From: a virus
Lineage: Duplodnaviria > Caudoviricetes
Strand: one strand, 5' to 3'
DNA length: 64,000 bases
IMG/VR virus record: IMGVR_UViG_3300008259_002461
Part shown: positions 29,379 to 63,276 of the stretch, in pieces
How the letters are laid out: each line of letters begins with the position of its first letter
Numbering within the stretch: position 1 is the stretch's first letter
The notes under the pieces: generated by a model
Seen by the model: the letters and a program-made list of their open reading frames with translations, nothing else
The model's database searches: none
Told to the model about the DNA's origin: nothing
Translations under genes and position numbers: made by a program

Positions 29379-29574
29379 TATCTGTTAGATCCTTTATCGA
29401 TAAATTAAGTTTTTTCCAGCTATGTTTTCCTTCGGTAGCATGCCCAGTATAAAGTTCTCCAGTTTCTTGATCAATTAAGATCCATTTCTCTGGACACTTA
29501 GTTACTACTGTAAGTGTTATTGCAGATTCTAATTCTGCAACTTTTTTACTGTTTTTTAATTTTCTTACCTTCAT
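29365..29574 (-). CDS. Hypothetical small protein
   Basis: 69-aa ORF with AGGTA RBS, starting 9 nt after halogenase 3 stop. Confidence 0.65.
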   Translation of the reverse strand: MKVRKLKNSKKVAELESAITLTVVTKCPEKWILIDQETGELYTGHATEGKHSWKKLNLSIKDLTDNASV

Positions 29575-29583
29575 TACAGATAC

Positions 29584-32253: not shown

Positions 32254-32256
32254 TTA

Positions 32257-33285: not shown

Positions 33286-33287
33286 TC

Positions 33288-35523: not shown

Positions 35524-38500
35524 TTATCTTAAGAAATAGTTATATGCTAGAGGTAATCCTAAAACTGTGCCGTTAAACACTACATTACCTTTTATATTTA
35601 TCGGAGCGCCGCTTACAGTTGTAATTGTATTGGCACCAACAAATATGTCACCTGCTGTTACTGAGTTTACATTCAATGAAGCGCCGCCGCCACCGATCTG
35701 TGCTTCAATGTACGCTTTAACAGCTCGTTGAGTTGGCACAATATTATCTGAGTTAGCAGTAAAGAATGGATCTGTACTAAATTCAGTAATACTTGCTGAG
35801 TTACCACCTAGTGTAACTTCACCTAAACTTAACTCTTGTAGTCCTGCAATATTAAATGCATCAGCATTAAGTGTTGCAACACCTGTACTCTGCTCAATAC
35901 TAAACAAATCGCCAACTCGGAAATTACCGTCTTGGTCAGTAGCTGTGAAGAATACTCGTCCACCATTTGAATCAACTGTTTCGTTAGCTTGAATAGGTTG
36001 TTGTAAAGGAGTGTTTGGATAATTTGTAGTATTAAATCCGCCAGTACCAATATCTAAGAAATCGTGACCAGTTAATCGAACTTGCGAGAATCTAATACGT
36101 AGTTCTACTGCTTCGTTGTTAGCTAATCGAGTACCTACTGGAATAGCAGGACTTACTTGTAAAAATCCTGTGTACGATCCTGGACTAGTTCCTAAGAAAC
36201 TAACAGTATTAACTAATTTAAAGAACTGTCCAGGTAAACTATCAAACACTATGTTTGATCCTGATACTGGCTGCTGTGTTAGTCTCTTCACAGCAATAAA
36301 TGTACCGTCCTGTATAAAGTCTGCACTACCGTTAGAATTTTGACTATCAATTTCTGCACTTGCAGTAATGAACCCAGTTCCTCTGTTAACAAATGTAGGA
36401 TTAGCTATTGCTCCGCTATTTAATCTTGCTTCTACTACTACATCGTCAATATTGTTAGGATCAGTGACTGTAATAGTTGGTGCACCGCTGGTATAGCCAG
36501 AGCCTGGTTCAATTAGTCGTATTTCAAATATCTGTTCGTTACTAACGCCAGCTCTACCTCGAGCTCTAGCTCCAATTCTTGCATCAAGGCCTGCTGTTGT
36601 AGTACCTGAACCAATTAGTACAAATTTGCCCGTTCTAGCTGGATTACCAAATGCTACAGCAAAATATCCTGTGTTTGGTAAGCTGGTAACTGCTGTCCAT
36701 ACAATTCCATCTTCTGAATGGTATAATGCTGTTGTTGTAGTTGTTACAACAAATACACCTTGTCCGTATGCAATGTTGTTTGTAGTTATGCTTCCTGCAA
36801 TAGTTACAGCACTACTCCAAGTAATACCATCTAAACTGTATGAGCAAGTGCCGTCACTAGCTAGAGCAACAAATCTACCATTACCCCAAGTAATATCATT
36901 CCAAGTTTTGTTTGGTAGTCCTGAACCTGCTGTCCAAGCAATGCCGTCAGTGCTATATACACTATTAGTAGTACCGCTCTTAATAGCTACAAACAATCCC
37001 TTTCCGTATGCAATAGGAAGATATCCAAGTGCTGGTAGAGCATTTGTTGTTAATGACCAGGTTGCGCCGCCGTTGTCTGAATATGCTACATCTCTGTAAC
37101 CTTCTGCGATTACAACAAATCTACCAATGTTGCTTGTAACTTGTCCAAATGCAACATTTGTTTGATAGCCAGCACCCGTTGGTATTGTACTAGTGCTCCA
37201 TACATCACCGTCATTTGAATATGCTGCTGTTGTACCTGCTGTAACAATCACAACACTTTGTTTAAATGTACTTGATCCATCGTTAATTAGTCCGCTAGCA
37301 ATATTTTTGTATGAACTAGCACTAGCAGGTAATACCTCTGCACTCCAAGTTACACCATCTATACTCTTTTGAGCACCAGTACCGCTGTTAGGTATTGCAA
37401 GGAATAAACCTTTTCGTGCAAGACCTGTAAAGTCGTAGTTGACTACTGCTCCTGTTACACTATTGATACTAGTAATAATTACTGTAATATCGTTGGCAGG
37501 GCTTGCGCCACCAACAGATGTGCCTGCAATAGTAATTGTATTACCTCTAACATAATTAGATCCTGCACTGTTAGTTGTTAGGTAGTATCTTTCGCCGTTA
37601 CGTGTAATGTTGAAAGTTAATCCTGTACCGGCGCCGCCTGTAGTTGTAACGGCTGTATATTGTGCAGAAGTTTCAAAATAATGCGCATTTGCATAATTAC
37701 TACTGCTAATAGTTGTAGCTGTTGTTGTCTTAGGAGGAGCTGTAAAAGAAATAGCTGGTTCAATCAAATAAGTTGACGAACTGTTAGGTGCTACAATGGT
37801 TGTGCCTGGAATAACATGATCCCATCCAGCTGCACCGTTACTTTCTCTTATTACCTCTGCTTCTTTAGAACCAGCATCGTAAGTGCTTATTATACCATAG
37901 TTACCAATACCTGCGCCGCCTATGATATACACTTTCATTCCAACATAAGCTGTACTTAAAGCACCATCAGTTGCTGATAAAAATACACTAGTTGTTGTTC
38001 CGCTCTGTGCAACGTTACTTACTCGAACATAGCCACTTCCACCTAGCGGTGCAGGTGTAGCTGGCGGAATAACTGTTTCTAAATCAACTTTAACATTTAT
38101 AACAGCATTGTCGCGGAACTCGTCAGCTACAACTACATCCCCAGTTCCAGCACCAAAAATATCAATTACAGCTTCAGTATAATCGTTACCTGCATGGTTA
38201 AATTCAAATCCTAGTAGCTGATTGTTATCAGTGAATACATTGCTAATTGTAGCACTATATTGGGTTTGATTATCAACTACTGCTGTTACAGGAGTTTCGT
38301 CAGGGTCAACACCTTCTGCTACAGATCCAAAGTCACCGTAGGAGTTGTTGCCGTTGGTTGCACGAATTCTGCCACCAGTTTCTGCTAGGTAGCCAATATG
38401 AGAGTAGTATGTAAATACAGATACAAGTTCTGCTCTACCGTTATTAGTAATCCATGCACCAATACCGTCTGAAATAACCTGAGTAAAGTCGTTGGATGTT

Positions 38501-41500
38501 ATAGAATCGTTGCCGCCGTTATGCAGATTACCGTCAACTTTTTGTCCGATAGCCGCATTACCAAATGTTGTTAGACCCTGTACATACGGTGATCGTGTTA
38601 TGATCCATGTAGTAAAGTCGTCTGGTCCCCAGCCTGGATCTAAGCTAGCGTAAGCACCAGCTGTCACCCGACTTGTACCAAATTCGTTTGGTGGTGTTAA
38701 ATCTCCATTTAATCCGTTTAATGTACAATCTCTTAAGCCAGTTGCATCGCGTAAGTAGAACATGTCTTCTTCTCTACTGCCTCGTACTGCGTTAGCATAA
38801 TAACGAGATACATAGCGAGATTTGTAGTTGCCTGGATATTTTAGATCATACTTTAGTGCATCAATGTATAGTCCAACATCGCGTAAGCACAACTCTACAT
38901 CATATGTATATCCTGGATAAGTTTGTGCTACATATGCTGCAACTTCTGCTACAATAAAGTTTCTATTACGCTCAAGCTGTAGTCTTGCGTATTCTCTATT
39001 TTGATTTTCAGTTTGACATACACTACCTTCGCTAGATCCGCCAAATATGATTTGATCTACAATTCTGTAGCTTTCTGTTAATCTTGCCTCAGCTGTAGCA
39101 TTACTCATTAATCCTAATGCTGTGTTTCTAGCTACTGTTAAACTGTTACGAGTAGCTTCTTTGATTCTATCATCTCTATCAAATAATTCTGAAGATGTTA
39201 ATCTTAAGTATGCGTGTGCTGCTTTTAATGTTTGATAATTGCTATTAAACATAAAGTCAAAAGCTACTGCCTTAGCAACGATTGCCGCGTCTCTACGAGC
39301 CTTTGTAACACTGTAATCAACATCTGAATAATTTGTAGCTAGGTATGCTTCTACAGCATCTTGTATAGCGTCAAACCCGCTGGCACTGATTGCAGTATAG
39401 TCACTAATTAGTGCTGTTGTAGTATTAACGCCATTTGCTGGTGTAGGATCAACTAGTGTTACAGTTGTACCTACTGCACTTGGTCCAACATCTAATATTT
39501 CTATAATGTCTTCAACATTATTAGCAATCTGTGTTATACTTCCAACATTACCTGTAAGCGTTTGTGTTACTAACGTTTGTCTAGGACTAACAACAGTAGT
39601 ATTGCCTGCTATGCTTTGTAACGTAGTTTTTAAAAAATTTAAAGAATTAATAGTTGCAGTTTTAATACTTGCTGGAATTTGAGGCTGTGTATTATCATCA
39701 CCGTCCCAATAAGCTAATCCTGCTGCAACACTTAATGCATTTCCGCCATAGGTCAAATCATAGACTAATGCATCAATTATATATCGTGCATCTCTGCGAG
39801 TTTTAGTTTTGCCGTAACGTAGCGCAGGATATTCTTCTGCTAGGTATGCAATAACTTCTGCTATTGCAAAATCTATATTAGTGCGAATATTTTGTCTTGC
39901 ATTTAACAAACTAGTACTATAACCAGTTGGGTTTGTTAAGTATGCGCTGTGCATAGTATCTAACAGATAATCTGCACGATACTTCATTACTTTAACTAAG
40001 TCGTATACAGCATCGCTTTCGGCTTGAATCGCCAACGGCCATTCTTGACTTTGTAATTCGTTGTTACCTACGGTAGGTGTTACTGTGACACCTTTGACTA
40101 CGTTAGACACTACATCGGCAATTCTATCAAATGTAGCGATTGTATATACTGAATCACCTGCTGGTACTGTAGATCCTTGAGCAATAATTTGTGTAGAACG
40201 AAGTTCGTCACCTTGTACACAAGTATAAGCTGGCACAATTATTGGTAGAGTTTCAAAATGCTTACCAGTAGATACTTTTATTAGACTAAAAGAAACTTCT
40301 CTAGCTGGTATTGAATTCACATTGCCTGTGCTTATTGCTGTAATAATAATATTAGCTAATTCTGTTATTCTAGTAAGTGCGCCTTGTTCAATGCGTAAGT
40401 TAACATTGAAATATTGATCTACGATAGCTACTGAATCATCTACAACATTTTGATAAATTACAGTTGGTGCTTCATTTGCAAGTACGGCTTGTATTAATAC
40501 TAGCATGCGGTTGTATGCAGCCACGCTTTGTAGTCTTTCGCTTGCTAAATCTCCGTACGGGCCAGTTCCGTTATTTTCTGCGGCTGTTGAGAACGGACCG
40601 TCTGCAAGTGCATTAAGGAATGTTTGTGCAGCGGCTCTAGTTTTTAAATTGCCACCGTGGCCTAGATCATGTAAAATTTTATCAAGAACAATTCCAACAT
40701 CGCGTTCGCATTTTAAAGTATCGTACTCAAAATTTTCCCAGATGCTACCTATTGTAGCACTTGCAACTTGATCTCTAATCCAAGCAGTTATTTCTTTCTG
40801 TATAAACACTCGGTTTGAGTCAAGCATAAATTGTGCTCGTTGATTCTTAATTCCCTGTTCAACTTGTTCACATGCATAGCGAATAGTTTTAAATGGTCTA
40901 TCAACACTTCCACCGTAGATAGGATACTCTCCGTCTACACCGTGTTCAGCAACATAGTACACATCTTCAACACTGCTTAAAAATTCCCAGTTAGGTAAAT
41001 TATTTGCACTAACTGTTAGTACTTGTCCATTTTCACCAATTGGTAATCTTGCTGGTGCTGAACCTGTAAAATAAACTAAGTCGCCAATTTCTGCTAGTAC
41101 ACTTTGTTCAGTGCCAACTGCTATAATATTCCAATATTGACTACTGTTTACTAGATCTGGTCTACTACCTGGATCACCGCCAAAAGTAGATCCGTCGTCG
41201 CCTTCTGATATATGTCCTTGTATACAAATGTATGAGTTATCACCAAATCGAACAACGTCACCTTCGTAGTACTCTTGGTCGTCTAACCATACATTGCGCC
41301 ATCTAAATCCGCTGTTAATCTGTTTCCAATATTCTGCATCAGGTGGTTGTTGTGCAGTTGTATGATCTTTAACGCACACATAAGTGAATCCGCCAAGACG
41401 AATAACTTCGCCTACTTTATAATGTTGGTTAGCACTGTCTTCGTTCCAGTCGCCAATGAAACGAAACCCTTCAGTGAACAAGTCCCAGTCGTCATTGACG

Positions 41501-42294
41501 CTGGTTGGAATGACTGCTAAATTAGTTGATCTGCTTATGTACTGATTTCCGCCGTAGCGAATAACATCACCGTCTTGATATTTTACAAATGGGCTCCAAT
41601 CATTTTCATATTGGAAGCCTTCTACAAATTTAGACCAATTAGCGTTATCAGTACCAAAGTCTGCAGATGCAGTATGTGCTACTGTACTAATCCAAACTCC
41701 TGCACCGTAACGAACTAAATCGTTAACTTTGTATCGGATTCCTGAAGTCCAAGTTCCTTTAAACTCAATTCCTTGATTAAAATAATCCCACTTGTCTTGA
41801 TTAGCTTCTAATCCCAAAGAAGCTGTAGCGGCAGACGTATGCAATTCATTACACACATAAGTAGTTCCGCCGTATTTAACAAAATCATTTACACGATAAC
41901 GAGTGCTTGGAGTCCAAGCACCTTTCCAGTCTAGTCCTTCAGCAAAAGCATCCCAGTTAGCAATATCGGCTTCGAGACCGGCATTAACATCAGCTGTAGA
42001 TGTATGAACAGTATTTGCAATGTATAGTCTAGCACCATATTTAACTATGTCATCAAACACATAACTTGTGCTAGTAGTCCAATCGCCTTTCCATATTTGG
42101 CCATCGCTGAGCAAGTTCCATTTTGGTGGAACAAGATTAAAGTCTGAGAAAAAGTTGGGTTGACTAGTGTGTCCAATAACGCAAATATATATTTTTCCAC
42201 CAAATGCAATTACGTCATCTTGGTAATACACCGTAGATGGTGTCCACACGTTTTTCCAAACAAATCTGATTCTACCTAGTTTAAATTCTGCCAT
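35524..42294 (-). CDS. Giant virion fibre/spike protein, 2256 aa (7 CBM5/12-like repeats, beta-helix core, helical repeats, 6 Asp-box repeats)
   Basis: W-x4-Y-x3-D-x-V-x-YGG-x2-Y-x-C-x3-HT repeats; YVAEHGVD...PFKTIRYA; RSPYVQ; YSxDGxxW repeats; paralog of next gene. Confidence 0.8.
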   Translation of the reverse strand: MAEFKLGRIRFVWKNVWTPSTVYYQDDVIAFGGKIYICVIGHTSQPNFFSDFNLVPPKWNLLSDGQIWKGDWTTSTSYVFDDIVKYGARLYIANTVHTSTADVNAGLEADIANWDAFAEGLDWKGAWTPSTRYRVNDFVKYGGTTYVCNELHTSAATASLGLEANQDKWDYFNQGIEFKGTWTSGIRYKVNDLVRYGAGVWISTVAHTASADFGTDNANWSKFVEGFQYENDWSPFVKYQDGDVIRYGGNQYISRSTNLAVIPTSVNDDWDLFTEGFRFIGDWNEDSANQHYKVGEVIRLGGFTYVCVKDHTTAQQPPDAEYWKQINSGFRWRNVWLDDQEYYEGDVVRFGDNSYICIQGHISEGDDGSTFGGDPGSRPDLVNSSQYWNIIAVGTEQSVLAEIGDLVYFTGSAPARLPIGENGQVLTVSANNLPNWEFLSSVEDVYYVAEHGVDGEYPIYGGSVDRPFKTIRYACEQVEQGIKNQRAQFMLDSNRVFIQKEITAWIRDQVASATIGSIWENFEYDTLKCERDVGIVLDKILHDLGHGGNLKTRAAAQTFLNALADGPFSTAAENNGTGPYGDLASERLQSVAAYNRMLVLIQAVLANEAPTVIYQNVVDDSVAIVDQYFNVNLRIEQGALTRITELANIIITAISTGNVNSIPAREVSFSLIKVSTGKHFETLPIIVPAYTCVQGDELRSTQIIAQGSTVPAGDSVYTIATFDRIADVVSNVVKGVTVTPTVGNNELQSQEWPLAIQAESDAVYDLVKVMKYRADYLLDTMHSAYLTNPTGYSTSLLNARQNIRTNIDFAIAEVIAYLAEEYPALRYGKTKTRRDARYIIDALVYDLTYGGNALSVAAGLAYWDGDDNTQPQIPASIKTATINSLNFLKTTLQSIAGNTTVVSPRQTLVTQTLTGNVGSITQIANNVEDIIEILDVGPSAVGTTVTLVDPTPANGVNTTTALISDYTAISASGFDAIQDAVEAYLATNYSDVDYSVTKARRDAAIVAKAVAFDFMFNSNYQTLKAAHAYLRLTSSELFDRDDRIKEATRNSLTVARNTALGLMSNATAEARLTESYRIVDQIIFGGSSEGSVCQTENQNREYARLQLERNRNFIVAEVAAYVAQTYPGYTYDVELCLRDVGLYIDALKYDLKYPGNYKSRYVSRYYANAVRGSREEDMFYLRDATGLRDCTLNGLNGDLTPPNEFGTSRVTAGAYASLDPGWGPDDFTTWIITRSPYVQGLTTFGNAAIGQKVDGNLHNGGNDSITSNDFTQVISDGIGAWITNNGRAELVSVFTYYSHIGYLAETGGRIRATNGNNSYGDFGSVAEGVDPDETPVTAVVDNQTQYSATISNVFTDNNQLLGFEFNHAGNDYTEAVIDIFGAGTGDVVVADEFRDNAVINVKVDLETVIPPATPAPLGGSGYVRVSNVAQSGTTTSVFLSATDGALSTAYVGMKVYIIGGAGIGNYGIISTYDAGSKEAEVIRESNGAAGWDHVIPGTTIVAPNSSSTYLIEPAISFTAPPKTTTATTISSSNYANAHYFETSAQYTAVTTTGGAGTGLTFNITRNGERYYLTTNSAGSNYVRGNTITIAGTSVGGASPANDITVIITSINSVTGAVVNYDFTGLARKGLFLAIPNSGTGAQKSIDGVTWSAEVLPASASSYKNIASGLINDGSSTFKQSVVIVTAGTTAAYSNDGDVWSTSTIPTGAGYQTNVAFGQVTSNIGRFVVIAEGYRDVAYSDNGGATWSLTTNALPALGYLPIAYGKGLFVAIKSGTTNSVYSTDGIAWTAGSGLPNKTWNDITWGNGRFVALASDGTCSYSLDGITWSSAVTIAGSITTNNIAYGQGVFVVTTTTTALYHSEDGIVWTAVTSLPNTGYFAVAFGNPARTGKFVLIGSGTTTAGLDARIGARARGRAGVSNEQIFEIRLIEPGSGYTSGAPTITVTDPNNIDDVVVEARLNSGAIANPTFVNRGTGFITASAEIDSQNSNGSADFIQDGTFIAVKRLTQQPVSGSNIVFDSLPGQFFKLVNTVSFLGTSPGSYTGFLQVSPAIPVGTRLANNEAVELRIRFSQVRLTGHDFLDIGTGGFNTTNYPNTPLQQPIQANETVDSNGGRVFFTATDQDGNFRVGDLFSIEQSTGVATLNADAFNIAGLQELSLGEVTLGGNSASITEFSTDPFFTANSDNIVPTQRAVKAYIEAQIGGGGASLNVNSVTAGDIFVGANTITTVSGAPINIKGNVVFNGTVLGLPLAYNYFLR

Positions 42295-48937: not shown

Positions 48938-51900
48938 TTATCCAAAAATTAAAACTTTTTCAATTGCTATACCTTCTGCATCCGCAAAGCTGATACCACC
49001 GCTTGCGCCTGCTACTGATACCCAAGTTGTTCCATCGTATAATTCAACTCGTTTATCAGAAGTATTATATCTAACCATTCCTGTTACACCTGATGGACGA
49101 GTACTGTTATCTCCAACTGGCAGCACTACTCCGTACGGATCTGTAAATTCAAAATATCCTGTACCAGTAGTTTGTAAAATTGTATTGCTGCCAGAAACTG
49201 TATTTGTTATTCTGTTGTCTTGGAATGCAAAATTTTCAAATCTAACTCTACCGGTACCATTTGCAGAAAGTACTAAATCTGTATTTGGTGTAATAGTACT
49301 TATCACATTTCCATCTACCTGGATAGCATCTACGACTACTTGAGGTGCATTAAGTCTAATGGTGTTTATGTCTACTATGGTATTATTTTGAACAATGAAT
49401 CTTATAGTGTTATCGTTAGCACCTTCTGTTAATTCTGCTGTGACTTTGGTATCGCCGTCAACATCTACTACACCATGTAACTGAATCCAATTTGTACCGT
49501 TATACCCTTCAAATCTTGCCAATTCACTGTTGAACCTAATTTGTCCGGCAACTGCTGCGGGGCGTTGTAATATTGTTCCAGCTGGCAATTTAATAGCACC
49601 TGTACTATCAATTATTACTGATCCACCTGCTGGAGCTATTGTAAAATTGCTTACAGAACTAATAGTTGCATTGTTGATGCTAAAATCATCAATTACTATT
49701 GATCCAGTTCCGTTTGCACGTAACTCTAAATTTGAGTTAGATGTTGTAGTTGTGATAAAGTTATCATCAATTAGTATATCGCCAGTAGTAAAATTATTAG
49801 CAGTAATAGTACCGGTGCTGGTAATGTTACCTGTAGTAATTGTTCCAATAACGGTTAGATCATTTGATATAACAACATCATTATTTGGAATAGAAATTAT
49901 ACCAGTGCCGTTAGCACGTAGTTCTAAATTAGAATTACTATCAGTAGTAGTAATTACGTTTCCGCTAATTTGAATATTTTCAAACTGTGCGCTTGCACTA
50001 ACTGTAACAGTTCCTGTGGTTGCAAAGTTGCCAGTTATATTGATATTACCTGTTTGTGTTACTGCACCTGTGTGAGTAATTGTTCCTATTATGGTTATAT
50101 CTTCTAGATCTGTGTTGCCATTAACTGTTAAATTCTGCTCAATGATAACATTGTTACTAGGTACTACTACTTCGCCTGTTCCGTTAGCACGTAGTTCTAG
50201 ATCTGAATTAGGTGTAGTAGTTATGATAAAATTATCATCAATTAGTATATCGCCTGTACTAAATCTATTAGCAGTAATAGTGCCAGCACTATTGATATCC
50301 CCTACAGTAATTGTACCATCAACAAATAAGTCGTTTGATATAACAACATCATTGTTTGGAACTATTACTTCGCCTGTACCTGCGGCTCTTAGTTCTAAGT
50401 CTGAATTACTATCAGTGGTAGTAATTACATTATTATTAATTTGAATATTTTCAAATTGCGCAGAAGCACTAATTGTTACTGTTCCAGAAATACTATAATC
50501 GCCAGTTAGTGAAATATTTCCAACCTGCGTTACATTACCAGTATGTACAAGTGTGCCTTGAATTGTTGTGTCGTCTAAATCAGTATCGCCATTAACTGTT
50601 AAGTCTTGGCCTAATACAACATCGTTTGTAGGCATAACAACATTGCCTGTGCCATTAGCACGTAATTCTAGATCTGAATTAGAAAGTGTTGTTGTGATTA
50701 TATTGTTATCAATTAATATATTACCAGTGCTGAACTGATTTGCTGTAATTGTTCCTGTTGTAGTTAAATTGTTTGCATTAATATCTGCTACAACAGTTAA
50801 ATCATTTGTTATCTGAACATTGTTGTTAGGAACAAGAATTACACCTGTGCCATTAGCACGTAGTTCTAGATCAGTGTTGGAAGTAGTAGTTGTAATAAAA
50901 TTATTATCAATTCTAATTTCTTCAAACTGTGCATATTCTGCAATAGATAACGAACCGTTTATAGTAACATCACCAATTATGTCATAATTACCTGTTTGTG
51001 TTGTGTTACCATTAACTGTTAAAATGCCGGTTACGTCAACATCGCCTAGAGTAGATTCGCCAATAACTGTAAGTTCGTTATTAATTAATACGTTGTTGTT
51101 AGGAACAAGAATTACACCTGTGCCATTAGCACGTAGTTCTAGATCTGTATTACTTACTGTCGTTGTGATATAGTTATTAGATATAGAAATATTATCTACT
51201 GTTACGTTATTAACAAAAATATTTGACCAACGTAGCGCGGCTGTACCTAAACTGTAAACACTGTCCTGAGCAGGTATAATATCAGAATCAATGCCTGCTA
51301 TAAATTGAATTGTGTCAGTGGGTGCATCACCTATAGTAATGTTTCCGCCAATTGATACATTGCCAGTTACATCAAGGTTGCCTGTAATAGTTACATTATT
51401 GTTTAGATTGATTTCATTTGAAGCTGCAACAATGTTAACATTGCCAGAGAGACTTTCAACAGTGTTTCCACTAATGCGTAGATTGCCTGTGTCAATTCGT
51501 GTACCGTCAATAAAAGTTATATTAGAACCGTCTGTAAATGTTACTCCAGATTCCGATACGTTAAAATTTGAAACAGTCAGTTCAACTGTTCCTGTATCCT
51601 GATTAACATAAAACAAATCACCAACTCTAAAGTCACCTTTGTGGTCTACAGAATTGTAGCGTATTTTAGCACCGTTAGTTTCTACTACTTCGTTGTCTTG
51701 TATTACAGTAATAGGATCATTAGTAACTTCTTTACCGTTGCCAATATATGCTAGATTTTGACCTATAGCATACATTAAAACACCAGGGCCGTCACCAACT
51801 AATCCAAAGTTACCGTATACAGACGCTGATCCAATTAATCTAACTTCTGCTCCAAAGTCTGTAAAATCAGTTAGGGTAATATACTGTGCTGTGGCACCGC

Positions 51901-54900
51901 CTGAGAATCTAATGTCTTGTGCATAAACAACATCATCTTCAAATGTTGTCGAATTGTTTGCACCGTCAAAGCGAGCCATTAAAACTGTGTCAGCGGTAAC
52001 TAATGCACGAGTAGTTGGTGCTGTAAAAGTAGTTGTATAGAGACCAACTCCTTTAATAATTCTTAAATCGTCAATATATCCGCTAAAAGAAGTGAGCCCA
52101 ACAAACGAGGCACCTAATACTAAGGGTTTTGTAGTTCCGTAATCAGTTGTATCAACATAAGTATTAGTTGACACAACTCCATTAATAAAAAATCTAGTTA
52201 CGCCACTAACACGAGAGATAGCAAGATGATTCCAAGCATTAAGTGTATGAGTATTGCTAGATGTTAATACAAACACTCCGTTTACAAATAATCTTAAATT
52301 ATTTGCGGAGTTAGACTGAACCATAATTGAATTCTGAGTCGACGTTGTTCTAGTATCAATTAAAATTTGCGAAAGTGAGGCTGTTTTATAGAACCATCCA
52401 TCGATTGTGAAGTCTCCCGTGCCAAACCCAAAATCTATTGTACTTTGAATACTAGCATAATCTCCTGTGCCGTCTAGGGCAAGACTTGATGTACCAAACT
52501 TTTTAACTGCTGTACTTAGTTTAGCATCTCCGTTGGCTGCGATAGTTTTGCCGCCTCGTTCTGCGGCTGTTTCAAATCCTAACTGTTTGCCGTCAATGAA
52601 TATTTTTCCGGTGCCATCAATACTAGCAATAGCTGCGCTTCCTAAAAGTGTAACACCATCACTGTCGTAGTAACTGATAGTTTGTCCAGTAGTAATTGAC
52701 CCTGCTAATCCGTCTACTCGTATTGCTGTTTCACCCTGGCCTTTAAGACCACTTACTCCATCTACTGCATATAATCCTCTGTTAGCAAAATATGTAAACG
52801 AATTTAACCACTCAACCCTAACGCCGTTGGTCATTACTATAGCGTCAACTCCAGGTGTTATAAATGTACAACTGTGAAATAAACATGCTGCTTCGTTGCT
52901 GAGAATGTTTGCTACTGCACCGTCTAGATATGCGCCTCTACCAGCATTACCTGCGTTAAATCCTCTCGGGTCTTCTAGTGTAGTTACGCTACCTTTGGTA
53001 ATTACACTGATGTTTTTAATGTATGGACTGCGACTAGTTACTGTAAACCCAGGTGCATATTTAAATGCAAATCCGGTTTCTACTGCGCCTGTTAAATTAT
53101 AAATGTATGTTTTACCTGATTCAGTACCGCCGGCATCATCCTCAAGATAGGCGCTAACTACGGCATAGTTACCTGATATTGCAACTGATGCAGCAAAGAA
53201 ATCACCTGCACTTGTACCAAAAGCATTAGGGTTATTAATAGTTTGTATTAGCTGTCCGCTTATAGTACTGAAAATATATGCTTTGCCTGAACCTCCGCCA
53301 CCAGCATCATCTTCTCCGTATGCGCCAACTATAGCATAGTTACCTGATATTGCAACTGACCAGCCAAAGAAATCACTAGCACTTGTACCAAAAGCATTGG
53401 GGTTATTTAGGGTATGTACTAGGGCACCCGTGGTTACATTAAAGATATAGGCTTTGCCTGAATCGCCGCCGGTGCCGCCTGCGTCATCCTCTTGATAGGC
53501 ACCAACTATAGCATAGTTACCTGATATTGCAACATTCCGTCCAAACAAGTCACCAGCACTTGAACTAAAAGGATTTGGATTGTTTAATGTGAATAGTAAT
53601 GCGCCGGTAGTTACATTGTAGATATAGGCTTTGCCTGAATTTCCACCATTGGCGTCATCTTCTAGCCAGGCGGTAACTATAGCATAGTTACCTGATATTC
53701 CTACTGCGATACCAAAGGCATCACTCGCACTTGTACTGTAGGCATTGGGGTTATCTAGGGTATGTACTAGGGCACCCGTGGTTACATTAAAGATATAGGC
53801 TTTGCCTGAATCAGCGCCGCCAATTTGATCTTCTGCATAGGCACCAACTATGGCAAAATTATCTGATATGCTAACTGAAAAACCAAAGCCATCACCTGCA
53901 CTTGTACTGTAGGCATTGGGATTGTTTAATGTGTGTACTAGGGCGCCTGTAGCTACATTAAAGATATAGGCTTTGCCTGAACCTCCGCCACCGGCATCAT
54001 CTTCTGCATTTGCCCCAACTATAGCATAGTTATTTGAGATTGCTACTGCGCCGCCAAAGGTGTCGGCGCCACTTGTACTGTAGGCATTAGGATTATTTAA
54101 TGTATGTACTAAAGCCCCAGTTGTTGCATTAAAAATATAGGCTTTGCCTGATTCAGTGCCGCCTGCGTCATCTTCTTGCAAAGCGCCGACTATAACATAA
54201 TTACCTGATACAGCAACTGGGTAACCAAAGAAATCATTAAGACTTGTACCAAAGGGAGTTGGATTGTTAATTACACTAGATAACGTGATTTCTGCTGTTG
54301 AGCTACTATAAAAGTCAGCTATTGTTATATCTTCAACTGTTGTTTCGCCGTTTAGTAAAAATGCATCATTAAATTGTGTACCTACAGTAGGAACAATTTT
54401 TACTGAACGTAGGCCTTGGCCTTTAACTGTTACACCTACTGGTATTGTTAAAGGAAATATTTCTGTGTATACACCAGGATAGATATGTACTGTGTCGCCT
54501 GTTGTAGCTACGCTAAGTGCATGCTTCACTGACGCAAAAGGCGCTTGAGGATGATCACCAGGTGATGCGTTGTTGCCGTTTTCTGCAACATAATAAATAT
54601 TACCTTGGCGCAATACTAAATCAATTCCAGCAACTGACAGGTCTGTTGAATTAATAGTTGATGCTACTAGATTATTAACATAAACATCTTGCCAGCGTTT
54701 GCTGGTAGTACCTAGGTCATATGTTACATTTACGTCTGGAATTATATCAGATGCAACTTCAGCATTAAATACTACATTGTCAGTGTCTGCATCACCGATC
54801 GTTACGGTTCCGTCTGCACTAATATTTCCAGTTGCATGAATATTTCCAGTAACATTCATGTTTGCATAAACATGTACTTCGCCGGTTCCGTTTGGACGTA

Positions 54901-55264
54901 ATTCTAAGTTTGCGTTTGAGCTATTGGTGCTAATAACATTGCCTTCAATGTCGATTGAATCAACACGAAGTTTGTTATTGTAAATGATGTTGTCAAATGT
55001 ACCTAATCTTAGATACTGTTGATCAGTACTAATAGTATTGCCTTCAATATTGACATCTGCGATGTCTGCTCTATTGTCAACTATTAGTGTTGTTGTTTTT
55101 GTTGTACCGTTTATTTGTAGTTCGTGCGTAGGAGCTACGGTTTTGATGCCGATGCGTTGATTAACAACATCAAGATATAGTAGATCTGTCTCAAAGGCAA
55201 TATTAATCCCGTTTCTAACGAGATTTTCCTTTAAGAGTGGACCCGAAATACGACCAATCGCCAT
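48938..55264 (-). CDS. Giant virion fibre protein, 2108 aa (beta-helix core with FG-GAP propeller and LamG-like inserts, repeated shaft)
   Basis: IYYVAENG...PFASVKHA; 7 FG-GAP repeats; FTIDGW...WNHLAI...GYIDDLRI; repeated DLELRANGTG. Confidence 0.82.
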   Translation of the reverse strand: MAIGRISGPLLKENLVRNGINIAFETDLLYLDVVNQRIGIKTVAPTHELQINGTTKTTTLIVDNRADIADVNIEGNTISTDQQYLRLGTFDNIIYNNKLRVDSIDIEGNVISTNSSNANLELRPNGTGEVHVYANMNVTGNIHATGNISADGTVTIGDADTDNVVFNAEVASDIIPDVNVTYDLGTTSKRWQDVYVNNLVASTINSTDLSVAGIDLVLRQGNIYYVAENGNNASPGDHPQAPFASVKHALSVATTGDTVHIYPGVYTEIFPLTIPVGVTVKGQGLRSVKIVPTVGTQFNDAFLLNGETTVEDITIADFYSSSTAEITLSSVINNPTPFGTSLNDFFGYPVAVSGNYVIVGALQEDDAGGTESGKAYIFNATTGALVHTLNNPNAYSTSGADTFGGAVAISNNYAIVGANAEDDAGGGGSGKAYIFNVATGALVHTLNNPNAYSTSAGDGFGFSVSISDNFAIVGAYAEDQIGGADSGKAYIFNVTTGALVHTLDNPNAYSTSASDAFGIAVGISGNYAIVTAWLEDDANGGNSGKAYIYNVTTGALLFTLNNPNPFSSSAGDLFGRNVAISGNYAIVGAYQEDDAGGTGGDSGKAYIFNVTTGALVHTLNNPNAFGTSASDFFGWSVAISGNYAIVGAYGEDDAGGGGSGKAYIFSTISGQLIQTINNPNAFGTSAGDFFAASVAISGNYAVVSAYLEDDAGGTESGKTYIYNLTGAVETGFAFKYAPGFTVTSRSPYIKNISVITKGSVTTLEDPRGFNAGNAGRGAYLDGAVANILSNEAACLFHSCTFITPGVDAIVMTNGVRVEWLNSFTYFANRGLYAVDGVSGLKGQGETAIRVDGLAGSITTGQTISYYDSDGVTLLGSAAIASIDGTGKIFIDGKQLGFETAAERGGKTIAANGDAKLSTAVKKFGTSSLALDGTGDYASIQSTIDFGFGTGDFTIDGWFYKTASLSQILIDTRTTSTQNSIMVQSNSANNLRLFVNGVFVLTSSNTHTLNAWNHLAISRVSGVTRFFINGVVSTNTYVDTTDYGTTKPLVLGASFVGLTSFSGYIDDLRIIKGVGLYTTTFTAPTTRALVTADTVLMARFDGANNSTTFEDDVVYAQDIRFSGGATAQYITLTDFTDFGAEVRLIGSASVYGNFGLVGDGPGVLMYAIGQNLAYIGNGKEVTNDPITVIQDNEVVETNGAKIRYNSVDHKGDFRVGDLFYVNQDTGTVELTVSNFNVSESGVTFTDGSNITFIDGTRIDTGNLRISGNTVESLSGNVNIVAASNEINLNNNVTITGNLDVTGNVSIGGNITIGDAPTDTIQFIAGIDSDIIPAQDSVYSLGTAALRWSNIFVNNVTVDNISISNNYITTTVSNTDLELRANGTGVILVPNNNVLINNELTVIGESTLGDVDVTGILTVNGNTTQTGNYDIIGDVTINGSLSIAEYAQFEEIRIDNNFITTTTSNTDLELRANGTGVILVPNNNVQITNDLTVVADINANNLTTTGTITANQFSTGNILIDNNIITTTLSNSDLELRANGTGNVVMPTNDVVLGQDLTVNGDTDLDDTTIQGTLVHTGNVTQVGNISLTGDYSISGTVTISASAQFENIQINNNVITTTDSNSDLELRAAGTGEVIVPNNDVVISNDLFVDGTITVGDINSAGTITANRFSTGDILIDDNFIITTTPNSDLELRANGTGEVVVPSNNVIIEQNLTVNGNTDLEDITIIGTITHTGAVTQTGNINITGNFATTGTVTVSASAQFENIQISGNVITTTDSNSNLELRANGTGIISIPNNDVVISNDLTVIGTITTGNITSTGTITANNFTTGDILIDDNFITTTTSNSNLELRANGTGSIVIDDFSINNATISSVSNFTIAPAGGSVIIDSTGAIKLPAGTILQRPAAVAGQIRFNSELARFEGYNGTNWIQLHGVVDVDGDTKVTAELTEGANDNTIRFIVQNNTIVDINTIRLNAPQVVVDAIQVDGNVISTITPNTDLVLSANGTGRVRFENFAFQDNRITNTVSGSNTILQTTGTGYFEFTDPYGVVLPVGDNSTRPSGVTGMVRYNTSDKRVELYDGTTWVSVAGASGGISFADAEGIAIEKVLIFG
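49700..51180 (-). repeat. Alternating 91-aa / 66-aa shaft repeats, (AB)3, delimited by DLELRANGTG
   Basis: Hand-counted units; 53-bp exact DNA repeat at 50820-50872 and 51093-51145 (273 nt apart). Confidence 0.85.
53088..54256 (-). repeat. Seven tandem ~171-bp FG-GAP (integrin-alpha-type beta-propeller) repeats
   Basis: Unit FG.SVAISGNYAIVGA..EDDAGG..SGKAYIFN...GALVHTLNNPN; 57-bp exact DNA repeat at 53408-53464 and 53756-53812. Confidence 0.9.
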
Positions 55265-55370
55265 CTCTTCTCCTCACACGGGGATCCTGTCCCTCTAGCC
55301 TAATTTACAGCTTGCGCTCTTTGCTGGCTAACCACAGTATATCCTGCAATGTGCGGTCTCACATTACATT
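55265..55370 (-). ncRNA. Candidate structured 5' leader RNA of the 2108-aa fibre gene
   Basis: GC-rich (41/80 at 55281-55360) non-coding gap between late promoter and RBS; 9-bp hairpin plus nested multi-stem domain predicted by eye. Confidence 0.45.
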
Positions 55371-55375
55371 ATCAA

Positions 55376-55382
55376 TATTTAT
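55376..55382 (-). promoter_or_regulatory. Late promoter motif ATAAATA
   Basis: gATAAATAt, about 110 nt upstream of ATG 55264. Confidence 0.55.
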
Positions 55383-55405
55383 CCGTTTAGTAAAATATAT
55401 TGTTA

Positions 55406-58400
55406 TTAGCCGTATATTAGAGTTTGGATGAACGCTTCGTCTTCCATCTGAGCAACACTGATAGAGTCAAACTGACCCGCACTAGATCGCCACTGATCAC
55501 CTATCCAGGTTTCAAGTGTGTCTGAATCAATATTATGTCGTGTTTGCCCTAGAACCGGGCTTGCAGGTCTAGACCCAGTATCTCCAGAAGGAAATTTAAC
55601 GGCTGTGTTCCCTTCAAACACTATCCACTGCTGTCCTGTTCCGCCTAGTCGAGAAGCAGAATTAAGTGTAGTAGGAACAATAATATTGCTCTTAATAGTA
55701 AACGCTTCGACAAGTAATTCGCCTGAGCCGTCTGCTCGTAATTCTAAATCAGAATTCGATGCGTTTGTAAAAATTGCATTATTATCAAATACTATGTCGT
55801 CAACATCTAATCTATGAGTAATTAATCCGTTAACAGTTACTTGGGCCAGCTGTACTGTATTAATTGTTAAATTTAAAGTATTATTAGTAGGATGTGCTAC
55901 TAGGTTAGTTCTGCGATCGCTAGAGTAAACACCGTTAAATGTTATAGTGTTAGACAGACCGCGAGCTTCAAATACATTATTAGAAGTATCAAATCTTAAA
56001 TCCCCTACGGTGTTTGATTGTTGTAGTGTAGTACCACTTGGTAACTTAACTGCTCCTGTAGAATTAATTGTAATATTTTCTGTTGGTGCAAATGTTATAT
56101 TTCCGCTTCTAGTTCCTAGTCTATCCGTATTTACAAATACATTTTCTAACAGTACATCACCTGCACTATTAGCACGTAATTCTAAGTTTGAGTTTGTATT
56201 AGTAGTAGTAATAACATTATCAAAAATTTGTATGTCGGTGCTACTTTCTAATGCTTCAAGAGCAAAAGTATTATTGATTGTTAAATTGCTAGTTACTATA
56301 CTTTGAGCAGTTAGATCCTGTGCAATAAGCAGACTATCATCAAATACAATATCTCCAATGCCGCTGGCACTTAGTATTAAATTTTCGTTTATGTTAGTGG
56401 TTGCAATAAAGTTATCAACAAGTTTTATTGCTTCTAGTTGTACATCGCTTTGAGTTGAAAACTGCCCAACTATTAAATTTCCTGTTTGAGAATAATTACC
56501 TGTTTGAGTTCTATTACCTGTGTGATTTACAGTCCCGTTAATAATAATATTTTTTAAATTAGTAGTGCCGTTAACTGTTAGATCTTGATCAAATATAACA
56601 TCGTTGGTTGGCAATGCAACATCACCTGTTGCACGTAGTTCTAAATCTGAATTAGAAATTGTTGTTGTGATATAATTGTCGTTGATTTGTATGTTATTAG
56701 TTCTAACAATAATATCATCTAAGTCAATGTCTTGATCAATTATAATATCACCAGTAGTTATAGTTGCAGCAAATAAATTATTTGTTACTCTAACGTTATT
56801 ATTAGGTACTAGTACTTTTCCAGTTCCACTCGCTCGTAAGTCTAAATCATTATTACCTACTGTAGGTGTAATAACATTGTCGTCTACTGATATGTCAGAA
56901 AATTGTACTGCACTGTTAACAAACATATTTCCGCTTTGTACTAAATTACCTGTTTGAGCGTAGTTTCCTAGTTGTGTTCTTAATCCTAACTGATCTAGTG
57001 TACCTATTACTGTGACATTTTGTAAACTTGTAATGCCGTCTACTGTTAAATCTTGTTCAAAAATAACATCACTATTTGGCAATGTTATATCGCCCGAGAC
57101 AATAATATATGTAAATTTAAAATTGGTAATTCCAGAATCAACTGTTGGGCCACCAAATGCCCAAGTACCGGTCATTCTATATACGCCACTGCCTTGACTT
57201 ACCCAACCGCTAGTGGAAGTAAAATTTATTAAATTACCGTATCCAGCAGGGTCTAGCTGTAATATTGAACCGCTAGAAACTGTTAGTAGATTATTAAATG
57301 CACTAGTGTTTGTCCATGCTGATAATGTTATTTCCAAATAGCTACCGGTAGCCCAGTAATATATTCCCCATGGATCGCCGCCAGTTGGAAATACTGCAAA
57401 ATCAGTATTGAACCCTGAGCCATTTGCCCAATACGTAATACTACTACTGTTTATAGCACTAATTACTAGGTCTAAGTTACCGTTGTTGGTTGTGATATAG
57501 TTTTGTGAAATATCAATGTTAGCTACGTCAGCTTTATTAAATTCTACAACATTGGTTATTGCTATGGTACTGGTATTATAGATATTATCAGCACTTAAAC
57601 TATTACTTACTAGTACATCGCTAGTAGGAACTAAAATTATTCCAGTAGGTTCTGCACGTAATTCTAAGTTTGCATTTGATGAAGTAGTTGTGATAACGTT
57701 GTCGTCAACTAAAATTTCTTCAAACTGTACTGCCTCAGTTACTGACAAAAATCCGTCTACTGTTTGAGACTGTACACTTACATCACCTACAATATTTACA
57801 ACACCGTTTAAATTTAAATTTGCTACACTGACATTATTGTCTAAAGATGAATTACCTACAACTGTTAAGTCATTACTAAATGATACATTGTTACTAGGAA
57901 TTAAAATACGCCCAGATCCGTTTGCACGTAGTTCTAGATCTGAGTTAGAGTCTTGTGTTTGTATTACATTGTCAAAAATTCTAATACTATTAATATTAGC
58001 TTCAGATAACCAAACATTTAACCATTGGTTGCTTATTGAACCTAAATTATATTGTGTATCTATATTAGGATTAAAGTTTTGTTCAATGTCTATATTAAAA
58101 TCTACAGTATCAGTATAAGCATTACCAAATAAATTTAATGAGCCGTCAAAATTAAAATTACCAGTCATTGCTAAATTTTTAGCAACATTTACATCAGAAT
58201 TGAAATTAATATTTTCACTTGCACTGTCAATATTAAATTCTCCAGATAAACTTTCAACAGTGTTTCCAGAAATCCTAATGTTTCCTGTATCTATTTTGTC
58301 GTAAGTAATAAAAGTAAAATTAGGATCGGTTCCTATTTTCATTTGAGCAAGATTATCAAATGTTACAGAACTAGTGTCAATACTAGTAGTACCGTTTTCA

Positions 58401-60532
58401 AAATCTACATAAAATGTAGTTCCAACTCTAAAGTTACCTAGATGATCCGTAGAACTATAATAAATTCGACCTGAATTTAATTCAACTGCTTCGTTAGCTT
58501 GTATTGCTAGTGTCTTATCGTTTGAAGAATTTAAACCACTGCCAATATATCCAAAATTATGCTGTATTAGATACATCAATGTATCTGCACCGTCAGCTAC
58601 TGCGCCATAGTTTCCATAGACTGATGCTGATCCAATGCTTCGAATTTCTGCTCCATAAATTACTGTACTACCGTCTTGACTTATTCTTCCAGTTGCTCCA
58701 TCTACTGCGTACAATCCTCTATTGGCAAAATACGTAAAACTGTTTAGCCATTCAACCCTAACACCATTGGTCATTGTTATTGCATCTGCATTTGGTGTTA
58801 TGAAAGTACAACTATGAAACAACATCGAAGCTTCAATACTTGCTGGATCCATTTCGCTACCATCAATCCAGGCCCCGCAGCCTGCTAATAAAGTAGTACT
58901 AGTAGTTGGAGATGAAAAGATTGGAATACCAGTTCCGCCAACTAAAAAGGTAGTAACATAGATTCTCCACTGATTAGTATTAACTGGATCTTCAATAATA
59001 TAATCAACTATGTATATTGTGCCGGCAACATTTATTGTCCAACCAGGTTGTACTGTAGTTTCAAAATTAGCTGGTAAATTAGTTTTAAAATATGCTACCC
59101 ATTTTTCACCAACTGAACTTCCGCTTGTATCCCAAATATCGTTTGTGATAATTAAAGTGGGATCAATAGTTGAATAAAAACTAATGGGTTTTATTTGACC
59201 AGTTGGATCAAAAGTTGTATCAACAGTCATTCGCCATTGAGTTGGGTCCGATGGCTCTGTAACAATTGATATAACTGTATAAAATAAAGGAGAATTAGGA
59301 TATCTATCAATGACTGCTGTTTGTCCTACTAACAAATCTACAAGAGCTTGGCTATAAAATGTTTTAGACAGTGTTACACTATTACTAGTTAAGGAAACAC
59401 CAGTAGGTGCTGGGCCAACAGTTATTTGTCTAGGCGTTACAAGTTCAGTATTAGTAATAACCGAAACATCTTGTACGTACGGACTTCTTGAAGAAAATAT
59501 TGCGTTAGGAGCAAATCTAAAAGCATATCCTGTGTTGTTTATATTGTCGTAATAAAAATCTTTTATTGTTAAATGCTGTACAGTTGTTTCTCCATTAAGA
59601 TGAAATACATCTTCAGTTTCGTATCCGGTTGCTGGCACTACTGTAACACTACGTATTCCTTCTCCAATAATAGAAACATTTGAAGGTACTACTAAAGGCA
59701 ACTGTTCCTGATACTCTCCAGGATAAACAAATATAGAAACAGGACCACCGTTGCTTGCATCAGCTGCATCTAGTGCTCTGCGAATTGTTGCGAAAGGACC
59801 TTGTGGATGATCTCCTGCATTAGTATCATCTCCATTTACTGCTACATAAAAAATATTACCTGAGCGCAATGCAAGGTCAATACCGCCGCCTGAGATTGAC
59901 GATGTTGTAACTACTTCACCATTAACTAAATCTGTATATAGCTGTCGCCATTTTTTAGATGGGGATCCTAGATCATATGTTAACGTCTGATCTGGAACAA
60001 TGTTGCTGCTAACATCAGTATTAAAATTAACAGTATCTTCTACGATGTTATTACCAAATGTTATTGTACCGCCTAGAGTAATGGTTCCAGGAGTTGTTAA
60101 ATTTCCAAAAATTCTTAGACTGTCAGTTTCTACAGTACCTGTTCCATTAGGAATTAAATCTATATTAGCGTTAGAACGTATAGTGTTTATTCTATTGTCA
60201 GAAATAGTAAACTCTGATGTTTCTAAATTTGATAAGACGATAGCATCAGCAGCATCTAAATTGATATTGCCAACTACAGCATTTATTTCATTGTCTTCTA
60301 TTCTTAAATTAGGAAGTATTAAATCATCAGCAATAAGATTTACGGTTCTAGTAGTACCAAAAATTTCTAATTCGTAGGAAGGATTATTAAGATTAATACC
60401 AATACGACGATTATTAACGTCTACATAGAGTAGCTGAGTCGTGGATGTATTATTACGAAAAGCGATATCTACGCCATTACGTATTAAATTTTCTTCTAGT
60501 AGCGGGCCGCCAATTCTACCAATCTGTGTCAT
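55406..60532 (-). CDS. Giant virion fibre protein, 1708 aa, paralog of 48938-55264
   Basis: IGRIGGPLLEENLIRNG start; shared MTNGVRVEWLNSFTYFANRGLYAVDG; same DLELRA repeats. Confidence 0.82.
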   Translation of the reverse strand: MTQIGRIGGPLLEENLIRNGVDIAFRNNTSTTQLLYVDVNNRRIGINLNNPSYELEIFGTTRTVNLIADDLILPNLRIEDNEINAVVGNINLDAADAIVLSNLETSEFTISDNRINTIRSNANIDLIPNGTGTVETDSLRIFGNLTTPGTITLGGTITFGNNIVEDTVNFNTDVSSNIVPDQTLTYDLGSPSKKWRQLYTDLVNGEVVTTSSISGGGIDLALRSGNIFYVAVNGDDTNAGDHPQGPFATIRRALDAADASNGGPVSIFVYPGEYQEQLPLVVPSNVSIIGEGIRSVTVVPATGYETEDVFHLNGETTVQHLTIKDFYYDNINNTGYAFRFAPNAIFSSRSPYVQDVSVITNTELVTPRQITVGPAPTGVSLTSNSVTLSKTFYSQALVDLLVGQTAVIDRYPNSPLFYTVISIVTEPSDPTQWRMTVDTTFDPTGQIKPISFYSTIDPTLIITNDIWDTSGSSVGEKWVAYFKTNLPANFETTVQPGWTINVAGTIYIVDYIIEDPVNTNQWRIYVTTFLVGGTGIPIFSSPTTSTTLLAGCGAWIDGSEMDPASIEASMLFHSCTFITPNADAITMTNGVRVEWLNSFTYFANRGLYAVDGATGRISQDGSTVIYGAEIRSIGSASVYGNYGAVADGADTLMYLIQHNFGYIGSGLNSSNDKTLAIQANEAVELNSGRIYYSSTDHLGNFRVGTTFYVDFENGTTSIDTSSVTFDNLAQMKIGTDPNFTFITYDKIDTGNIRISGNTVESLSGEFNIDSASENINFNSDVNVAKNLAMTGNFNFDGSLNLFGNAYTDTVDFNIDIEQNFNPNIDTQYNLGSISNQWLNVWLSEANINSIRIFDNVIQTQDSNSDLELRANGSGRILIPSNNVSFSNDLTVVGNSSLDNNVSVANLNLNGVVNIVGDVSVQSQTVDGFLSVTEAVQFEEILVDDNVITTTSSNANLELRAEPTGIILVPTSDVLVSNSLSADNIYNTSTIAITNVVEFNKADVANIDISQNYITTNNGNLDLVISAINSSSITYWANGSGFNTDFAVFPTGGDPWGIYYWATGSYLEITLSAWTNTSAFNNLLTVSSGSILQLDPAGYGNLINFTSTSGWVSQGSGVYRMTGTWAFGGPTVDSGITNFKFTYIIVSGDITLPNSDVIFEQDLTVDGITSLQNVTVIGTLDQLGLRTQLGNYAQTGNLVQSGNMFVNSAVQFSDISVDDNVITPTVGNNDLDLRASGTGKVLVPNNNVRVTNNLFAATITTGDIIIDQDIDLDDIIVRTNNIQINDNYITTTISNSDLELRATGDVALPTNDVIFDQDLTVNGTTNLKNIIINGTVNHTGNRTQTGNYSQTGNLIVGQFSTQSDVQLEAIKLVDNFIATTNINENLILSASGIGDIVFDDSLLIAQDLTAQSIVTSNLTINNTFALEALESSTDIQIFDNVITTTNTNSNLELRANSAGDVLLENVFVNTDRLGTRSGNITFAPTENITINSTGAVKLPSGTTLQQSNTVGDLRFDTSNNVFEARGLSNTITFNGVYSSDRRTNLVAHPTNNTLNLTINTVQLAQVTVNGLITHRLDVDDIVFDNNAIFTNASNSDLELRADGSGELLVEAFTIKSNIIVPTTLNSASRLGGTGQQWIVFEGNTAVKFPSGDTGSRPASPVLGQTRHNIDSDTLETWIGDQWRSSAGQFDSISVAQMEDEAFIQTLIYG

Positions 60533-63195: not shown

Positions 63196-63276
63196 TGTTT
63201 TCTCCTTAATTTGACGTTTTAGGTCTACGCTGCGGGTTACAGCATAAGTTCGCATTACGCGAATATAATTTAGACA
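63196..63276 (-). ncRNA. Candidate three-way-junction 5' leader RNA
   Basis: GUCUA/UAGAC enclosing UUCGC/GCGAA and UGCUG/CAGCG hairpins between late promoter and RBS. Confidence 0.4.

Follow-up and report, generated by a model that had tools for sequence, protein, structure and literature searches.

What a long leader does in front of one particular virion gene is the question raised by this locus, which lies on the minus strand of the window, the whole 64,000-nt stretch of viral DNA analysed here. The source phage is T4-like by its gp23-type capsid protein (PF07068) and tail sheath, and the window is its structural region. The nearest cultured capsids, 71-79% identical, belong to jumbo myophages including Sinorhizobium phage Phosso, Vibrio 2.275.O and PA5oct, and a related genome in IMG/VR that is rated complete measures 357,559 bp.

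The T4 late promoter is TATAAATA (PMC3014915), and the motif GATAAATA at this locus would set the transcript 5' end a few nucleotides downstream of itself. TAAATA is found upstream in 371 of 375 homologues, the other four having none within the stretch covered, and no TAAATA lies inside any of 243 leaders, which speaks against an internal promoter bypassing the RNA. The initial annotation had noted that most late motifs lie close to their start codons and that the gap here is about 110 nt; of the 17 genes in the window that have TAAATA no more than 130 nt upstream, 12 have the motif within 36 nt, and the gap here is 111 nt. Its GC figure of 51% needs correction, as the leader itself has 47.7% GC and only the shifted interval 55255-55364 reaches 50.9%. 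The window as a whole has 37.5% GC. The remaining intergenic gaps have 22-39% GC, and 5.6% of all 111-nt windows reach the GC level of the leader. The longest gap measured in the window (205 nt, 29379-29583) has 32% GC. In 170 of 289 leaders, TAAATA is followed by an AUG at offset 6 (here 55369-55364, minus strand, reading AUG-UAA), the same offset as that of apparent leaderless starts in the window; an upstream open reading frame from this AUG was rejected, neither its length nor its frame being conserved among the 289 leaders.

The 2108-aa product of the downstream gene matches cyanophage baseplate wedge initiators at 40% and carries FG-GAP and LamG inserts, and the gene heads a conserved 13-kb structural operon. 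Described at first as the largest gene, it is the second largest, after one encoding 2256 aa at 35524-42294. Other large virion genes, like the upstream paralogue, manage with short leaders. Coordinates of the features discussed are collected in the table.

Table. Features of the leader RNA and its flanking genes
Feature	Position	Strand	Description
Upstream paralogue	55406..60532	minus	1708 aa, 35-40% identical; plain 18-nt leader; internal control
T4-type late promoter motif GATAAATA	55376..55383	minus	Identified by sequence; putative promoter
Leader RNA	55265-55375	minus	111 nt between the late-type motif and the ATG at 55264
P1, 9-bp 5' hairpin	55345..55368	minus	55368-55360 with 55353-55345, loop AGACCG
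P1 loop GACC	55355..55358	minus	Predicted to pair with GGUC in codons 4-5; SD and AUG enclosed
Invariant AC	55337..55338	minus	May pair with GU 55279-55278, closing the core domain; no covariation
S1 5' strand UGU	55334..55336	minus	Pairs with 55324-55322
L1 GG and U55331	55331..55333	minus	U55331 may pair with G55295
S2 (P3) 5' strand UAGCC and A55325	55325..55330	minus	Pairs with 55300-55296 and U55302
S1 3' strand GCA	55322..55324	minus	Zero nt between S2 and S1
P4, optional hairpin AGC-GCAA-GCU (GNRA)	55309..55318	minus	Inside L3; absent from about 37% of homologues
S2 3' strand U55302, bulged A55301, GGCUA	55296..55302	minus	Covariation
P5 hairpin GGGA/UCCC, loop CAGGA	55281..55293	minus	Covariation; all pairs flipped in subtype II
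Shine-Dalgarno (SD) GAGGAG	55270..55275	minus	Identified by sequence; SD-like motif in 286/289 homologues
GGUC, +10..+13 of coding sequence (Gly4-Arg5)	55252..55255	minus	Proposed P1 loop partner
Controlled gene	48938..55264	minus	2108 aa virion protein; PHROG baseplate wedge families, FG-GAP repeats, LamG

Distribution of the leader and its gene partner

Protein and pattern scans returned 375 loci with 243 distinct leaders, later raised to about 290. In all 375 loci, without exception, genuine cores stand directly before the same virion gene family; 15 further pattern matches comprised 13 chance matches in GC-rich DNA and two cut contigs. Retrieval by protein only, which carries no pattern bias, revealed leader variants that the patterns had missed, and the leader was present in 61 of 61 and 116 of 116 protein-retrieved orthologues with a complete upstream region, at protein identities down to 46%. 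A covariance model gave one match in the window, at 124.9 bits, and a single strong match in each related viral record.

The leader-bearing family shares the N-terminus MAVGRISG and ranges from 349 to 2108 aa in length, the leader accompanying the N-terminal module at either extreme. A homologue of the 109-aa gene comes next in 86 of the 90 loci where the next gene is visible. Seven FG-GAP repeats with a 171-nt period occupy 53093-54253 within the 2108-aa gene and are absent from the short homologues (down to 349 aa). The N-terminal model also matched Bdellovibrio fibres weakly (E 0.1). Where copies of the gene N-terminus have moved to unrelated neighbourhoods, a core without P1 precedes them (L157:6629, L569:1304 and L592:3777, oriented coordinates). 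Elsewhere in the window, three tandem glycine-rich paralogues with near-identical N-termini occupy 31057-34313 (minus strand).

The leader family is carried by uncultured aquatic T4-like jumbo phages. The covariance model did not match the genomes of Phosso, Vibrio 2.275.O or PA5oct, the cultured phages closest by capsid, and neither blastn with the leader nor tblastn with the N-terminus found a match in cultured phages. A GTDB pattern scan gave, among the matches listed, at least two true ones, both on contigs of metagenome-assembled genomes (MAGs) resembling binned phage DNA. These are L398 and L460, and both carry the leader and the gene. L398, with a length of 335 kb and assigned to a Neomarinimicrobiota MAG, has the freshwater-2 RNA as well and is probably a binned jumbo phage rather than host DNA.

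A search against Rfam 15 left the leader unmatched in the window and in 15 homologous loci (E<=10), in line with the earlier statement that it could not be assigned to a known family, and literature searches found no description of it. The main text of Fremin et al. 2023 (PMC10690425), which describes about 10,000 candidate viral RNA models built from IMG/VR, names no baseplate or tail leader. Judged against Rfam 15, the literature and that main text, the leader represents a new RNA family, although its functional kind is a known one.

Covarying helices of the core pseudoknot

The core of the leader is a compact H-type pseudoknot of about 60 nt, with a 3-bp S1, a 2-nt L1, a 6-7-bp S2 and no L2. 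The first S1 pair is U-A in 218, C-G in 46 and A-U in 22 leaders, and the second is G-C in 282 and C-G in 4, both being Watson-Crick in 286 of 286; the third is U-G, U-A or C-G. S1 gave the top mutual-information pair, and 9/9 and 6/6 independent pairs were concordant on a tree of 223 proteins. S2 shows double changes at five of its five UAGCC/GGCUA pairs. A sixth pair across the bulge, A55325-U55302, is standard in 232 of 243 leaders (16/16 independent pairs); therefore, no base remains between S2 and S1, which together with the 2-nt L1 gives the geometry of CPK1 (PMC11262651). In P5, the third pair is changed in 47 of 243 leaders (12/12 independent pairs), and the whole stem is flipped in 26 subtype II leaders. 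These counts of independent events are upper bounds, because recombination among these genes could uncouple the history of the leader from the protein tree. The first S1 pair and the central P5 pair appear coupled (8.5/12 independent pairs), which may reflect block inheritance.

On alignment A1, the covariation model has 96.5% of cells paired and eight double-changed pairs, compared with 29-48% of cells in slid controls, and the G-U wobbles indicate that the minus strand is the one that folds. Comparative evidence thus establishes the helices, the folded strand and the fixed gene partner, and on this evidence the leader is a real, evolutionarily conserved and covarying cis-acting structured RNA. 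Subtype II includes L653, L665, L668, L727 and L742 (upstream of 801), in which an extra hairpin is inserted in L3 and P5 is flipped. A CsrA site in the P5 loop was rejected, since its GGA is lost in CAAGA variants and in subtype II, and a K-turn in P4 was rejected by register.

Single-sequence folding of the leader does not go beyond chance (z -1.58; 15 of 200 shuffles as good), and the pairing over the AUG in its minimum free energy (MFE) fold was rejected as not conserved. P1 alone folds beyond chance, at -11.0 against -4.0 +/- 1.8 kcal/mol. It starts about 7 nt past the late motif, its stem sequence is free to vary, its length is 7-18 bp in homologue MFE folds, and it is missing in 3 of 243 leaders. 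No conserved helix sequestering the SD was found among homologues.

The structure proposed initially holds in part. All of its named stems can be written in the sequence and its GAGGAG SD is present; the call for covariation among relatives is answered strongly in about 290 distinct homologues, and both the P1 hairpin with loop AGACCG and the UAGCC/GGCUA helix (S2) are borne out. The other three of its five helices fail as conserved elements: GGAU/AUCC has 60% and 9% of cells paired, CUGU/ACAG shows zero double changes with one pair broken in 14 of 65, and AGC/GCU has 66% of cells paired. The suggested nearby pseudoknot between the first loop and UGGUU likewise falls away (0 double changes; 497 of 500 shuffles as good), as does the dimer through a self-complementary GCGC loop, which occurs in just 14 of 243 leaders. 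What stands is a conserved, covarying leader RNA.

Two further classes of RNA may be weighed against this fold. The core pseudoknot could be the aptamer of a new metabolite or ion riboswitch class, with the loop-codon helix described below or P5 as its expression platform. A compact H-type fold in which unpaired A, C and G residues are conserved, with an SD just downstream, would suit such a role, and its size and topology are those of preQ1 or SAM-II-type aptamers. The sole gene partner, however, is a virion protein without a metabolic link, Rfam riboswitch models are unmatched in 16 leaders (E<=10), L2 offers no unpaired base for ligand pairing, and no conserved alternative helix was found, the CUGU/ACAG and loop/UGGUU alternatives lacking covariation, although docking of the loop-codon helix may depend on a ligand; we regard a riboswitch as improbable. 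That T4 had no known riboswitch as of 2010 (PMC3014915) also counts against it.

The small pseudoknotted fold with its invariant unpaired bases would also suit a new self-cleaving ribozyme or processing signal that trims read-through transcripts of the upstream paralogue; no terminator was found on the minus strand between the paralogue and the 2108-aa gene. In many homologues, a hairpin followed by ACAAAC..UGUGG presumably echoes hatchet ribozymes. However, the hatchet, twister, pistol, hammerhead and HDV-like models are unmatched, and the leader occurs as a single copy per genome with one gene partner, unlike mobile ribozymes. Moreover, P1 length varies freely, whereas the hatchet P1 is 3 or 6 bp (PMC4604424). 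Cleavage is accordingly the least probable of the functions considered here.

Pairing between the P1 loop and codons 4-5

Apart from the core, the P1 loop is predicted to pair with the beginning of the coding sequence. The loop 4-mer is GACC in 205 of 240 leaders, with wobble-compatible variants otherwise, and it is unpaired in 211 MFE folds. On the coding side, the Gly4 codon is GGT in 219 of 223 genes (98%, against a background of 48% and 20-88% at other conserved Gly columns), and Arg5 is CGN in 222 of 223, whereas the equivalent Arg in the leaderless paralogue is AGA in 51 of 65. Mean duplex energies with the P1 loop are -9.4 kcal/mol for +6..+19, -6.2 for the UGGUY of the leader and -1.9 for other coding 14-mers. 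Seven genes lack GGUC; in two of them a GUCC loop compensates, and in the other five the GACC loop is lost. The GUCC/GGAC pair sits inside a well-supported GACC/GGUC clade. Covariation at the position flanking the loop-codon helix shows the same trend, without reaching significance once the tree is taken into account (p 0.25-1). The one or two double changes, together with the codon constraint, lend the predicted helix moderate support. Gly at codon 8 is also GGT-biased (88%; codons 7-8, 55245-55240), possibly as a second GGUC-type target or through another RNA constraint.

Eleven leaders keep the core but have no GACC loop, so the brake that this helix may provide is dispensable. Among the 42 leaders without an upstream paralogue, 11 have lost the loop, compared with 0 of 247 with one; because the losses fall in about three lineages, of which two are deeply diverged, this association is only a lead. 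That the loop depends on the upstream paralogue was rejected as a general rule, 26 paralogue-less leaders retaining the loop. In the divergent lineage L607, L609 and L610 (L106, L244), the P1 loop contains AUGAGG, the SD is weak and Gly4 is GGG; the core is retained and the loop-codon pairing is absent.

A candidate translational operator

The distance from the end of P5 to the start codon is 16-18 nt in 222 of 289 leaders, and that from the promoter to the core varies between 9 and 62 nt, which argues that the ribosome binding site is what fixes the position of the element. The leader most likely sets how often the gene is translated, and the translational operator suggested by the initial annotation fits, because the position of the leader is tied to the SD and start codon. 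The same spacing weighs against an antitermination or processivity RNA of the put kind, through which late RNA polymerase would read through the 13-kb structural operon. Such an RNA has a phage precedent in HK022 put, and the element does lie just 3' of a promoter, where a long conserved operon begins; its conserved spacing, however, is to the start codon rather than the promoter, codons are constrained at +10..+13, and the core relocates together with the gene N-terminus. We consider this reading very unlikely, slightly more so than a riboswitch.

Within translation, we favour, with a probability of roughly 0.5, a protein-binding operator of the rpsO or gene 32 kind with a candidate phage ligand. 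It is favoured because the arrangement matches that of Escherichia coli rpsO and echoes T4 gene 32. In rpsO, a short coding stretch is part of the pseudoknot, the SD sits in the large loop, and binding of S15 traps the 30S complex (PMC3985624). As in rpsO, a 5' hairpin loop would pair with the first codons, a large pseudoknot loop would hold the SD and AUG, and the gene product is needed in stoichiometric amount for an assembly. Unlike in rpsO, the gene encodes a phage virion protein instead of ribosomal protein S15, the large loop also contains a conserved H-type pseudoknot and P5, and there is neither sequence similarity nor an Rfam match.

The gene 32 leader of T4, T2 and RB69 offers an H-type pseudoknot in T4-like phage (PMC3014915). 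The present core shares the gene 32/CPK1 geometry (PMC11262651), with a 1-2-nt L1, a 6-7-bp S2 and stems without an intervening nucleotide. It differs in that its S1 has only 3 bp and the pseudoknot lies about 30-70 nt from the AUG, that P5 and a structured GC-rich tract (47.7% GC) take the place of the unstructured A+U-rich tract over the gene 32 ribosome binding site, that the gene does not encode an ssDNA-binding protein, and that a P1-codon pairing is added. The inhibitory hairpins of T4 e, soc, 49 and I-TevI likewise place RNA structure at late-gene initiation regions (PMC3014915); in those genes, the late promoter is located within the structure and so eliminates it, whereas here the motif is upstream of the entire structure and the SD lies outside any conserved helix. 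A RegA operator was rejected, the leader site being structured and not A+U-rich and unstructured over the AUG; regA (PF01818) was not found in three related genomes by a search that gave no positive-control signal.

The window holds another structured leader, the freshwater-2 RNA (RF02980; 63193-63264, minus strand, 51.6 bits), located after the capsid terminator and a late motif. Like the leader described here, it is an uncharacterised structured leader that follows a late motif and ends at an SD in the same phages; unlike it, freshwater-2 consists of three tandem hairpins before another gene, and its model misses the present leader. Its SD points to the ATG at 63198 (142 aa) and not to the longer ORF start at 63255. 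Related genomes carry freshwater-2 too, and this orphan motif can thus be assigned to T4-like jumbo phages.

Under the protein-operator reading, the late motif would drive the leader mRNA, in which the core pseudoknot and P5 would fold and end about 17 nt 5' of the AUG. The GACC loop of P1 and codons 4-5 would then form a second, larger pseudoknot with the SD and AUG in its loop. This 4-5-bp helix would be too weak alone and may be stabilised by a protein on the core; in the bound state, the 30S subunit would be unable to accommodate the start region, as in rpsO entrapment, and translation of the virion gene and its operon would be held down, repression rather than enhancement being an assumption. 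The likeliest candidate ligand is a phage late protein, namely the gene product before assembly, its paralogue or a protein with which it assembles, which would provide feedback control of stoichiometry. No RNA-binding domain was detected in the 2108-aa product, and the downstream 125-aa protein matches no recognisable RNA-binding family.

A structure that sets translation constitutively, with no regulator, is the next reading in order, though we think it unlikely. Here, the core would dock on the host 30S platform or host S1 as an enhancer or standby site, P1 would guard the 5' end and the loop-codon helix would be a fixed brake. The fixed spacing between core and SD, a P1 that begins where the transcript presumably begins (about 7 nt beyond the late motif) and the relocated gene copies that keep the core without P1 are consistent with it, and T4 cis structures can raise or lower initiation without a protein (PMC3014915). 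Yet the paralogue and other large virion genes get by with short leaders, and invariant unpaired bases next to an optional peripheral hairpin resemble a specific binding surface. Overall, the protein operator is ranked first, followed by constitutive structure, riboswitch, antitermination and ribozyme.

A more specific proposal, which we put forward tentatively, is that the leader is a new phage RNA sensor. Its pseudoknot would be an aptamer for an unassembled virion (baseplate or fibre) protein or a small molecule, whose binding would dock the loop onto codons 4-5 and trap the ribosome, giving an assembly feedback like that of ribosomal-protein operons. Because the loop is lost only where the upstream paralogue is missing, such a sensor may balance the two paralogous subunits.

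In summary, the unusual feature of this leader is a double-pseudoknot design before a virion gene. According to a 2010 review of T4, gene 32 may be the sole example of a viral autoregulatory pseudoknot (PMC3014915). The proposal is directly testable with E. coli reporters and structure determination, because the core is about 60 nt long, natural compensatory variants exist at nearly every pair and the leaderless paralogue serves as a negative control. The leader also makes a clean candidate for a new Rfam family, and it marks a group of uncultured jumbo phages. In large phages, the ratio of baseplate to fibre protein copies is usually ascribed to promoter and SD strength; if the reading is true, a two-pseudoknot operator before a virion gene would add post-transcriptional control of particle assembly.
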